A DNA stretch of 64,000 nucleotides, from positions 62,001 to 126,000 of the forward strand of contig JABANN010000007.1 in assembly GCA_013115125.1 (NCBI GenBank), written 5' to 3'. The notes beneath the pieces were generated by a model. The model was given only the letters and a program-made list of their open reading frames with translations, did not search any database and was not told the origin of the DNA. Both the position numbers and the translations under genes were made by a program. Origin of the DNA: Perkinsus olseni (taxonomy: Eukaryota). This document shows, one piece after another, positions 2,413-5,120 of the stretch. Positions within the stretch are counted from its first letter, which is position 1; every line of letters begins with the position of its first letter.

Positions 2413-3114
2413 ATGGAGTCGCCACCAGAACTAAATCTTCTAATACTTGAGTCACGGTACGAGCAGAAATCGGAAGAAGATGAAGACATACAACTCTCAG
2501 AACAAATGGGCCAAACTGTTGAACAACTAGCAACCATATCAGCAGCATCAGCAGCAGACAATTCTGAATTGAGCCGGAACGATCCACTATTTGAGGCATG
2601 GGACTGGACCCCATCCACGGTATCTTCGAGTACAGCGGGGATGCCGGGATTGTTGCCGTTTATCGATTTCTCACCAGAAGGTAACTCGGTGGAACAGCCC
2701 TCGGCAGGGCAGGATGGCAGCCTACGAGAACTATCGAATACAATAATTCATAACGGTACACTTTGGGAGCCTAATAGTCTCGCGACACCACCTTTACGAA
2801 AGCAGCGGAAGTCTAGGGCACGTAACGGGGTGCCCCAATTGGGAGAGGCGGGGAGAGCTCAATTAAAGTCTGCGATATCCGCGGCCATTCGTGGTGAGAA
2901 TCGCAAGAAGATGATATGCCGTGAGATAGGTGTATTGAAGAGTGCAACCATAAGGCAGCTCATCTTGATGGCGAACGCTATTGGATTGAGTCACGTTGTG
3001 GATGACTTGGTAGCAGATTTTGAGAGAGTAAAGGAACAGAAGAAAATACTCCGTCCTTTAAAGCTGACGAGTTGCATACGGAAGCGACTCTCGTCTAAAC
3101 GTAGCGGAGTTTGA
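2413..3114 (+). CDS. Hypothetical protein A: acidic N-terminus plus one copy of the unrecognised 55-aa domain (2839-3003)
   Basis: ORF 2284-3114; the ATG at 2413 (MESPPEL) is preferred because it avoids overlap with the divergent gene. The domain aligns without gaps to copies in the two neighbours. Confidence 0.8.
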   Translation: MESPPELNLLILESRYEQKSEEDEDIQLSEQMGQTVEQLATISAASAADNSELSRNDPLFEAWDWTPSTVSSSTAGMPGLLPFIDFSPEGNSVEQPSAGQDGSLRELSNTIIHNGTLWEPNSLATPPLRKQRKSRARNGVPQLGEAGRAQLKSAISAAIRGENRKKMICREIGVLKSATIRQLILMANAIGLSHVVDDLVADFERVKEQKKILRPLKLTSCIRKRLSSKRSGV

Positions 3115-3303
3115 AATGATAACAACAGGTGTGACCCACCTATACATGATCTTATTGTACAGATGTTTTACCCCTCTTAAATCATCATCATCATACTGCA
3201 TGAGATTGGAATCATGTTTATCAATTTGTTAGTCAATAAGTCCGATCGTGGTGTTGTGTTTACGGCAAGGAGAATGTTGACAGCTTCTTTAGAGATTACA
3301 ATC

Positions 3304-4299
3304 ATGGCAACACCGCACTCCGCCATGAGCCTCTCTGAGGGAGGAAACGCAATGTCGCCAAATCGAACTGGATGCACGACTTCTGAGGTTCCCCAACAGT
3401 CCTGCGAGGTCCCCACCGATGGGGCATCCGGCGATTCCAATGGATCGGCACTCCGAGGAGTTTCCCCAACTTCTAGCCTTGAACAAGCTATCAGTGCCTG
3501 GTATCTTACGAGTTCTATGGACACTTGTTGCACAACAGACGAGGCAGCAACGAACGTCGACCACCGGAGGGGATGCCAAGGGTGCCACTCACATGAACAT
3601 GATCTTCCTTCATGCCAATCGAAACCAGAAGTGAAGGAAGAGGAGGAAGTGAAGGAACTAATGATAGCTCCGTCTGTCATAGCGTCTCGTGGCTCAAAAC
3701 AAGGAAAACTTCAGCTCGGAAATCATGGGCGGGCCAAGCTGCGGCGGAAGATATCATCAACCCTCAGTGAGTCACGAGACGGGAAGAGGAAACGCCGCGA
3801 GATCGGTCTGGTAAGGTCGGCGACAGTGGAGCAACTGATACGGATGGCAGACACGTTAGGGCTCAGTGATTACGTAGACGTTATAGTGCAAGAGCAAAGA
3901 GAGTTGAAGGAGGGAGTTCGGTCTCCCACTCGAAAGTGTGAAGGCTCCTCACCACGAAGGAGACAACGCAGGGGATCCACCTCGAGTATATCAACGAGCT
4001 TCAGTAGTTCCGTAGCCTCCACTACAGACAGCATTTCATCCAATACTCACAGAACTGACCGAGTCGATGCACAGCTGGGGAATGCCGGACGAGGCTTGTT
4101 GAGGCGCAGGTTATCCACCGTGACGCGAGAAAATGGGAGACATCGAGAGACGTGCCGCACGATTGGGAGGGTTAGGACTGCCACCGTACAGGAACTCATC
4201 GGTATGGCGGATGCGATCGGTCTAAGCGATTACGTTGACATGCTGATCAAAGATTTCCGTGACAAGAAAGATGCCAGATCTCGCAGAGTTAGAACGTAG
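3304..4299 (+). CDS. Hypothetical protein B: Ser/Thr/Cys-rich N-terminus plus two copies of the 55-aa domain (3715-3879, 4075-4239)
   Basis: ORF 3214-4299, start uncertain (ATG at 3304 or 3214). Internal duplication of LGNxGR...IG.VR(S/T)ATV..LI.MAD.(L/I)GLSDYVD. Confidence 0.8.
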   Translation: MATPHSAMSLSEGGNAMSPNRTGCTTSEVPQQSCEVPTDGASGDSNGSALRGVSPTSSLEQAISAWYLTSSMDTCCTTDEAATNVDHRRGCQGCHSHEHDLPSCQSKPEVKEEEEVKELMIAPSVIASRGSKQGKLQLGNHGRAKLRRKISSTLSESRDGKRKRREIGLVRSATVEQLIRMADTLGLSDYVDVIVQEQRELKEGVRSPTRKCEGSSPRRRQRRGSTSSISTSFSSSVASTTDSISSNTHRTDRVDAQLGNAGRGLLRRRLSTVTRENGRHRETCRTIGRVRTATVQELIGMADAIGLSDYVDMLIKDFRDKKDARSRRVRT

Positions 4300-4505
4300 A
4301 GGCGCTGACCATAGACTGCTGTCTCTTCTGCAGTGTGACGCCGATTCATGCGCATGCGTGCAAACACATCTAGGTCATATGACGCTCTTGCTAGTTGTAG
4401 CTTTGACAGTTTTGCTTTGAGTGGGTCACGAGGGGAGGGTCGACGTCTCCCTTGTGAGTGTCTTTGAGTGCTTCCTCTTCAGTGATCACCTGATTCTTAG
4501 TCCTC

Positions 4506-5120
4506 ATGTTCCCAAGTGGCTCCACTGTCTTGGCAACGGGGTTGCCTGACGATTGGCCAATTCCCCGCGATTTGGGTGACCCTATCTCCCCGGTCCCCAA
4601 TGACACTTTCATCAAGATTGAGCCGACTTTCATGCGCTGGCTTTCACAATCAGGATCACCCGTGGTGCCCACTGCTGCCACGCCGGTATTGGTTCAAGGA
4701 GTGGTCGTCGGTGTAGACCACCTCGCGCTCCCAGGAAATGTCGCCCCTTACCTCAGCATCACTGAGCAGGGATTTTTACCCTTACGGATGCTCCCACACA
4801 GTCTAGCTAGCCCTGATAAGTCTCTCAAACAAGTGGTCGATATGTCGAGGGTATGTGGTCTTGGTATGATGAGAACACCTCCGCCGCCGCCGCCACCACC
4901 GCCGACGTCAGCTTCTCCCCGCCGGACGTACCCGAAGCTTGGTAATCGAGGTCGTGCTAAGCTCAGAGGCATGATCGCCGCTGCTGCCAAGGGCTATTCA
5001 CAAGAATGGAAGGCTTCCCGAGGAATCGGGTCACTCAAGACTGCTAGAGTCAGAGATCTCATACGCATGGCTGAAGAGCTCGGTCTGAGCGAGTACGTTG
5101 ATACTGTGGCCTTGGCGTAG
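4506..5120 (+). CDS. Hypothetical protein C: Pro-rich N-terminus with a poly-Pro tract plus one C-terminal copy of the 55-aa domain (4938-5102)
   Basis: 204-aa ORF ending LGNRGRAKLRGMI...[28 protein letters not shown]. Confidence 0.8.
   Translation: MFPSGSTVLATGLPDDWPIPRDLGDPISPVPNDTFIKIEPTFMRWLSQSGSPVVPTAATPVLVQGVVVGVDHLALPGNVAPYLSITEQGFLPLRMLPHSLASPDKSLKQVVDMSRVCGLGMMRTPPPPPPPPPTSASPRRTYPKLGNRGRAKLRGMIAAAAKGYSQEWKASRGIGSLKTARVRDLIRMAEELGLSEYVDTVALA

Follow-up and report, generated by a model that had tools for sequence, protein, structure and literature searches.

Few transcription factors outside the ApiAP2 family are reported from apicomplexans and their relatives (10.1101/2020.10.26.352583, PMC4501334, PMC2821373). 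ApiAP2 proteins are described as carrying one or more copies of a small domain (~60 amino acids [aa]) in long disordered chains, in a family common to perkinsids, chromerids, and apicomplexans that has expanded lineage by lineage (PMC4117751, PMC4501334). Plasmodium HDP1 (PF3D7_1466200) is reported to be a nuclear factor of 3078 aa, encoded in one exon, whose C-terminal "homeodomain-like" domain makes up 2% of its length; this 60-aa helical domain binds GTGCAC as a dimer, the rest of the chain is unconserved, and the same report gives homologs from Plasmodium and coccidia only (10.1101/2020.10.26.352583). HDP1 of P. berghei (PBANKA_1329600) is described as recruiting PbARID to TGCACA (PMC11162789), and the preferred sequence of HDP1 is given as TGTGCACA (PMC11417369). 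The Toxoplasma ortholog, TGME49_233160, is listed at 1856 aa (supplement of PMC13377188) and as nuclear-chromatin (supplement of PMC7670262) and is reported to copurify with SWI/SNF (10.1101/2025.07.16.665172). Here, we describe three tandem genes (A, B, and C) of Perkinsus olseni that share four copies of a 55-aa basic domain. They lie in a window of 64,000 nucleotides (positions 62,001 to 126,000 of contig JABANN010000007.1, assembly GCA_013115125.1). We consider it fairly likely that A, B, and C are Perkinsus members of a family of small, sequence-specific transcription factors that spans the myzozoans and whose shared domain probably binds DNA.

The initial annotation had described four ungapped copies of the domain with 18 invariant columns, in three intronless open reading frames (ORFs) on the plus strand, and both translation and alignment confirmed this arrangement (Table 1). 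In 20,000 within-copy shuffles, the number of invariant columns never exceeded 2. Pairs of copies are identical at 23 to 30 of 55 aa, 78 to 92 of 165 nucleotides, and 13 to 21 of 55 third codon positions, and synonymous sites between copies are saturated (pS of 0.70 to 0.88 versus pN of 0.31 to 0.41), which supports the earlier view that the strongly diverged DNA marks old paralogs under selection. The flanks of A, B, and C share no similarity that BLAST detects at an E value of ≤1, again as first described, and a profile of the four copies found no further copy in the window below an E value of 0.1. In A and B, the helical domain extends ~10 residues beyond the 55 (helix 4). Gene B has an alternative in-frame ATG at position 3214.

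Table 1. Features of the window (positions count from its first nucleotide)
Feature	Positions	Strand	Description
Gene A coding sequence	2413-3114	+	233 aa without introns; single domain copy; start Met shared with the orthologs of P. marinus and P. chesapeaki
Acidic-aromatic motifs of A (residues 57-65, 80-86)	2581-2670	+	Candidate activation or partner-binding motifs (putative role); kept in P0003, P0085, and P0005
Domain copy A	2839-3003	+	Helices 1-3 and start of helix 4 (to ~3033); 84-98% identity to orthologs
Gene B coding sequence	3304-4299	+	331 aa, intronless, two domain copies with a 65-aa Ser/Thr-rich linker between
Domain copy B1	3715-3879	+	Predicted model, pLDDT 86
Domain copy B2	4075-4239	+	Translation, ungapped alignment, leave-out profile match
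Gene C trans-splice acceptor AG	4481-4482	+	Behind pyrimidine tract; spliced-leader-like 5' letters in 2/4 runs
Gene C coding sequence	4506-5120	+	204 aa, intronless, one C-terminal domain copy; P. marinus orthologs P0006 and P0084
Second conserved block of C-type proteins (residues 61-97)	4686-4796	+	Hydrophobic, without Pfam match; aligned in P0006, P0084, P0007, and P0008
Domain copy C	4938-5102	+	Translation, ungapped alignment, leave-out profile match
GTGCAC palindrome (HDP1 core motif)	2359-2364	.	Between gene A and the divergent gene upstream of it (106-base gap); no more than a weak lead
Ribosomal protein L34e	10856-11044	-	Ordinary neighbor
VRR-NUC nuclease	39154-41163	-	Ordinary neighbor
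RRM_2 + RRM_1 protein	43003-44295	-	Ordinary neighbor
Aspartyl protease, similar-looking pieces upstream	44942-48154	+	Ordinary neighbor
Guanylate-binding protein	52012-53521	-	Ordinary neighbor

Conservation among orthologs is strongest within the domain. Identity is 84 to 98% inside versus 49 to 62% outside for the three orthologs of A, 66% versus 21% for the single ortholog of B, and 67 to 85% versus 26 to 44% for the four C-type proteins. Outside the domain, the acidic-aromatic motifs of A are also conserved, as is, in C, a block of 37 residues overlooked in the initial annotation. Thus, selection is not confined to the domain, contrary to the initial proposal; the orthologs also keep sequence elsewhere. 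Among the proteins fetched, the 37-residue block occurs only in C-type Perkinsus proteins and belongs to no catalogued family. A, B, and C are genuine selected genes.

Expression was compared over positions 900 to 5400 in four public sequencing runs of the 24 listed (one recorded as RNA, two guessed to be RNA, and one of unknown kind). Gene C was covered in all four, with a transcript reaching ~5280 to 5333. In two of the four runs, its contig starts at 4481 with 9 or 10 loose letters corresponding to the 3' part of PmaSL1, the Perkinsus spliced leader whose sequence is given in PMC3101222. Because these letters are joined at a genomic AG after a pyrimidine tract, the gene C mRNA is trans-spliced to the Perkinsus spliced leader. 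All four runs also covered part of gene B (3329 to 4179 at most) without joints, leaving its ends uncovered. Gene A was covered in none of the four; such contigs drop rare RNA, and the missing cover was therefore not counted against the gene, which is contained letter for letter in the P. olseni protein FOL46_008586. That NCBI model (P0004), which fuses A to upstream plus-strand exons, is doubtful, as contigs from three runs span ~1140 to 2290 unspliced and without a joint. An intronless minus-strand ORF of 383 aa (1155 to 2306) lies there, head to head with gene A and separated from it by 106 bases; it is a single-copy gene in the genome with no Pfam match and unspliced contig cover in all four runs. 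FOL46_008586 uses the opposite strand over this ORF, and its fusion to A is probably wrong.

The domain had been proposed as lineage specific, which did not hold. The four-copy profile retrieved 83 relatives at an E value of ≤0.001 from 1.84 billion cluster representatives. All but one of these (82/83) carry the domain at ≥20 bits by a deeper profile that itself drew in part on these sequences; a repeat protein (P0078), which matched 17 profile positions, was discarded as a false relative. Organisms were looked up for 31 of the 83 relatives. An organism was given for 20, all of them myzozoans: nine from three Perkinsus species, four from Chromera, three from Vitrella, and one each from Digyalum, Gregarina, Cyclospora, and Babesia; the other 11 came without an organism. 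With the Babesia domain as the query, 13 of 26 candidates carried the domain, 12 of which are named as Babesia or Theileria. The piroplasm copies, found at the extreme C terminus, are 71 to 77% identical over the searched region (query excluded). No viral contig yielded a relative among 73 pattern matches.

To avoid circularity, leave-out profiles were derived from a 62-row alignment (the four window copies plus 58 of the 83 relatives), with E values calculated for a library of 1.8 billion sequences. A profile lacking the ten array-type rows recovered B, A, and C at E values of 1e-30, 2e-14, and 4e-8, and one lacking the Babesia row recovered 12 of 13 piroplasm proteins at 1e-11 to 3e-9, the shortened thirteenth scoring 0.026; hhalign against a Babesia protein gave 96%. 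Because these profiles score both the window genes and the piroplasm proteins, the domain is not lineage specific and, judged by sequence profiles, is homologous across Perkinsus, chromerids, squirmids, gregarines, coccidia, and piroplasms. Several relatives depart from the common form. The piroplasm proteins P0071 and P0093 to P0103 carry an additional conserved helix ahead of the domain and terminate five residues past the Gly, P0064 has two domain copies (one with an insertion), and Vitrella P0076 seems, by eye, to retain a decayed second copy near its N terminus. Three piroplasm relatives bear the name "AT hook motif-containing"; the one scanned contained no Pfam family.

Paralogs occur elsewhere in the P. 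olseni genome. Used as queries, the window copies matched only the four array copies; other family members retrieved five more genes on four contigs (C1880, C256, C1659, and C1537; loci L010, L014, L015, L016, and L021), a lower bound, with two of them ~1.7 kb apart on C1537. Inspected by eye, four of the five have a GT-AG intron within the domain, at three different places, and the remaining gene is split across frames. Searching this genome with the piroplasm-type query P0104 gave no match. In a 66-row tree, the A, B1, and C-type copies each cluster with orthologs from other Perkinsus species (99/94, 100/97, and 100/98, respectively), and a P. chesapeaki paralog groups with Cyclospora and Gregarina at 85/89, though 70 columns resolve little. 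The two-domain ortholog of B is P0001 from P. chesapeaki, and the closest relatives of gene C are P. marinus proteins. P. chesapeaki A and B bear consecutive locus tags, and a contig of 16,355 bases is given for both P. marinus A and P. marinus C; these tags and the common contig figure suggest that the gene order of the array is conserved in other Perkinsus species. The array probably arose when an intron-free copy was duplicated in tandem, before the three sampled species separated.

The initial annotation did not recognize the domain, and neither did our searches: no Pfam, NCBIfam, or PHROGs family matched it at cutoff. Specifically, Pfam gave nothing at cutoff for the domain in eight window proteins or in the 62 domain rows, and no other Pfam domain at cutoff in any of 17 full-length relatives scanned. 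A Dioxygenase_N match in B (E value of 4.8e-5, 23.5 of 27 bits, two stretches, 3 of 62 rows) was rejected as a helix match. No curated profile of a homeodomain or other trihelical helix-turn-helix reached cutoff, the best being CENP-B_N (E values of 0.046 to 0.12 in 1 of 62 rows; copy A scored 12.5 bits against a cutoff of 21.2). The ApiAP2 family was rejected, with no AP2 match in the window proteins, the 62 rows, or the 17 relatives, as was the AT hook, with no Pfam family at an E value of ≤0.01 in P0094 or P0071 and none in A, B, or C. By sequence, the best PDB matches (E values of 0.02 and 0.14) were both repeat proteins. In the ESM Atlas, feature scores were ≤0.76 and all structure rows fell under threshold. 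A full-text literature search, outside which most subscription papers lie, returned no description of the domain for Perkinsus, chromerids, or piroplasms. Six gene identifiers, of which four belong to family members, appeared in none of the papers of the full-text library.

AlphaFold models were made for B1 (62-row alignment) and for one Babesia domain (28 rows). The B1 model has helices at residues 8 to 23, 28 to 39, 43 to 53, and 56 to 69 (predicted local distance difference test [pLDDT], 86.2; predicted template modeling [pTM] score, 0.72); the Babesia model shares the three core helices and has one additional helix at the N terminus (pLDDT, 85.1; pTM, 0.74). The AP2 domain consists of a three-stranded sheet and one helix. 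The present domain, unlike AP2, is all helical in both models, with no strands in either. The structure prediction and Foldseek search that had been proposed as a check produced a helical model but no PDB match at an E value of ≤0.001; nor did viral models match at that threshold. Among folds of the homeodomain and helix-turn-helix type, CDX2 gave a template modeling score of 0.27 and an E value of 8.5, and XRE-type domains gave Z scores of 2.9 to 4.2. The best Z scores in the wide fold searches were 6.3 and 5.1, which are no proof of a new fold.

Both wide fold searches returned the ACDC domain of P. vivax AP2-I (Z score of 5.7, root mean square deviation of 2.3, and 55 aligned residues with one model; Z score of 2.8 with the second). 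ACDC domains of ApiAP2 proteins (PDB entries 8rwu and 8rxa) are likewise helical bundles of apicomplexan nuclear proteins, and the present domain could be a similar protein interaction module of nuclear regulators, binding a remodeler, a histone, or a partner rather than DNA. The mostly hydrophobic conserved surface of helix 3 would suit such a role. We nonetheless regard it as unlikely: neither Z value rises above the noise expected of helical bundles, the Pfam ACDC model was not among the matches of the 62 rows at an E value of ≤0.1, none of the 17 relatives scanned has a second DNA-binding domain, and conservation on the surface is highest at Arg, Lys, and Ser.

The likeness to HEH, SAP, and Rho-N motifs noted in the initial annotation survived only as a subthreshold match. 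Helix 3 and its Gly-Leu turn resemble the first helix of these folds, with Rho_N matching over 21 residues (model positions 2 to 22 of 43; 15.6 of 24.9 bits; E values of 0.016 to 0.11) in 3 of 62 rows; this is half of the model only, and that end is shortened in piroplasms. The resemblance and the basic surface, along with trans-splicing at gene C, would accord with proteins that bind RNA and act posttranscriptionally in a spliced-leader lineage. This appears improbable, as the partial match is confined to those few rows, two more conserved helices precede helix 3, helix 4 begins right after the Gly and the extended loop of the Rho-N fold is absent, and the family exists in apicomplexans too. 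Helix 3 is also similar to SAP/HEH tethers, and the uniformly positive charge could serve an architectural tether that binds DNA or chromatin without sequence specificity. Diverged paralogs are numerous within each genome, with at least 8 genes in P. olseni, 4 in Chromera, and 3 in Vitrella, and their helix 1 residues are subfamily specific, which suits different targets better; a tether is very improbable.

The transcription-factor-like architecture suggested in the initial annotation holds across the family, which consists of a basic domain in an otherwise unconserved protein. In 60 of the 83 relatives, the domain ends ≤45 aa from the C terminus, and the rest of the chain is long, poorly conserved, and of low complexity. 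The net charge of the domain core is positive in all 62 rows (median, +5). Beyond the hydrophobic core, the conserved positions are G7, G10, R11, K/R15, S16, S19, and K/R23 of helix 1, followed by K/R29, K/R37, K/R39, A41, T/S42, and Q45; over the 62 rows, R11 and K/R15 are conserved in 100%, K/R39 in 98%, S19 in 89%, and K/R23 and K/R29 in 87%. On helix 1, S16, S19, and R/K23 lie 128 to 172 degrees from the hydrophobic face, with K15 at 88 degrees. The conserved basic residues thus occupy helix 1 and the helix 2-3 loop rather than the helix-Gly-turn-helix end. Helix 4 is acidic and variable, and the piroplasm proteins stop soon after the Gly; for these reasons, it is an unlikely recognition helix.

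We therefore picture a compact, all-helical domain of ~55 to 65 aa with three core helices and a dispensable fourth. Helix 1 (R11, K15, S16, S19, and R/K23) would read a DNA groove while K37, K39, and T42 at the helix 2-3 loop grip the backbone, and variable positions of helix 1 would set specificity between paralogs. The two copies in B may form a single-chain dimer. The acidic-aromatic motifs of A could recruit coactivators or remodelers, and the disordered N-terminal arms with their short conserved motifs would serve cofactors.

Several points weigh against a family of transcription factors. The family was gathered with a profile of four basic sequences, which favors basic members, and a basic helical domain would also suit RNA or protein binding; DNA binding and a nuclear location are predicted roles of its members. 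R11, at just 48 degrees from the core face, may have a structural role. Among the 31 relatives looked up, no member was named from Plasmodium, Toxoplasma, Cryptosporidium, or dinoflagellates and none from ciliates either, the searches being shallow for all five. The grouping of the whole array in the tree (95/78) includes one long branch and draws on 70 columns and is thus not firm. Finally, intron-free ORFs are common in the window, and no spliced-leader relic was found upstream of A, B, or C at ≤3 mismatches; retroposition is therefore not established.

By the tests made, the family is not AP2, AT-hook, or Rho-N, and it resembles HDP1 and ApiAP2 in architecture. The architectural likeness to HDP1 comprises a ~60-aa helical domain, usually C terminal, in an otherwise unconserved, low-complexity protein; a single-exon gene; and an apicomplexan range that includes coccidia. 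It is quite possible, if short of probable, that the HDP1 domain belongs to this family. Besides the common size and architecture, HDP1 homologs are reported in coccidia and the present family has a Cyclospora member, and a 2010 survey reports no canonical homeodomain in P. falciparum (PMC2821373). P. berghei primers, read by eye and assuming that the two primers are contiguous, encode an H-Y-F motif 21 residues before the stop; when this motif is set on the aromatic pair at positions 66 and 67 of the gregarine subgroup, the 87-aa P. falciparum construct would start at family position 2. The primer-derived tail is also, by eye, compatible with helix 4. GTGCAC occurs 49 bases before the start of A.

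Other observations speak against this kinship. HDP1 proteins measure 1856 to 3078 aa versus 204 to 331 aa for A, B, and C, and HDP1 is reported absent from noncoccidian apicomplexans, including the piroplasms, in which the present domain is strongly conserved. TGME49_233160 is reported to lack homologs beyond close Toxoplasma relatives (10.1101/2025.07.16.665172). The piroplasm-domain search found nothing among 14 candidates of 925 to 2640 aa, a range that includes the Toxoplasma protein, although this is a weak point, as the search relies on exact words and may concern another paralog. H-Y-F-L would also suit the end of an ordinary helix-turn-helix. 

A search for orthogroup links in 12 of 16 supplementary files of PMC4501334 and in the supplements of PMC4851813 and PMC7670262 gave none. 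TGME49_278750, which has an AT-hook name and is listed as nuclear-chromatin in PMC7670262, could be the source of the Babesia names but was not among the piroplasm-domain search matches, and we do not rely on it.

The window contains 8 GTGCAC sites versus 18.8 expected, one of the 8 being in the gap before A, but the hexamer ranks 48th of 2080 in depletion and is not special. The most depleted hexamer is CTTAAG. TGTGCAC occurs 0 times in the whole window versus 10.6 expected from dinucleotide shuffles. A run of overlapping palindromic words of the CATG/TGCA type occupies ~4346 to 4362, in the B-C gap upstream of C.

The domain may instead be an undescribed DNA-binding fold distinct from that of HDP1, a further transcription factor class inherited from the myzozoan ancestor; we hold this possibility tentatively. 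On the same tentative footing, the class would have expanded in perkinsids and chromerids, remained highly conserved in Babesia and Theileria, and left other paralogs in coccidia and gregarines. The uncatalogued regions of P. berghei PFG/FD2, putatively DNA binding and reported to be kept from apicomplexans to Vitrella, are comparable in this respect; they are two in number (108 and 139 aa) and adjacent outside Plasmodium (PMC10945693). Their size and arrangement differ from those of the present domain.

The array had also been noted to adjoin an SWR1 remodeler gene. One downstream helicase exon indeed matched Swr1 and SRCAP best (63 and 61 bits, versus 47 for INO80), but the neighbor is not kept at the one outside locus confirmed among 285 pattern matches (L009). 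As this single locus has other neighbors, the adjacency was given no weight and looks incidental. L009 (3508 to 4410) is an intronless family member in a gene-dense eukaryotic contig, flanked by genes that we take to be 14-3-3 and ATP synthase beta. Elsewhere in the window, two long intron-free ORFs on the minus strand (31119 to 32963 and 33109 to 35259; 614 and 716 aa) have no Pfam match at an E value of ≤0.001. At 701 to 1024 on the minus strand lies the first exon of an expressed gene, which has a Cys/His motif close to its start and no Pfam match.

Whether the domain is new or that of HDP1, either outcome enlarges the short list of factors outside ApiAP2. If new, it would define a class of regulators open to testing, whose strongly conserved Babesia and Theileria members currently carry hypothetical or AT-hook annotations. 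Were it instead the HDP1 domain, a family so far described from Plasmodium and coccidia alone would actually be ancestral and rich in paralogs. Perkinsus is placed near the base of the dinoflagellate line (PMC3101222). Its versions of 200 to 330 aa would be far easier to express, crystallize, and assay than parasite proteins of 1800 to 3000 aa. The array exposes an uncatalogued, myzozoan-wide domain that probably binds DNA.

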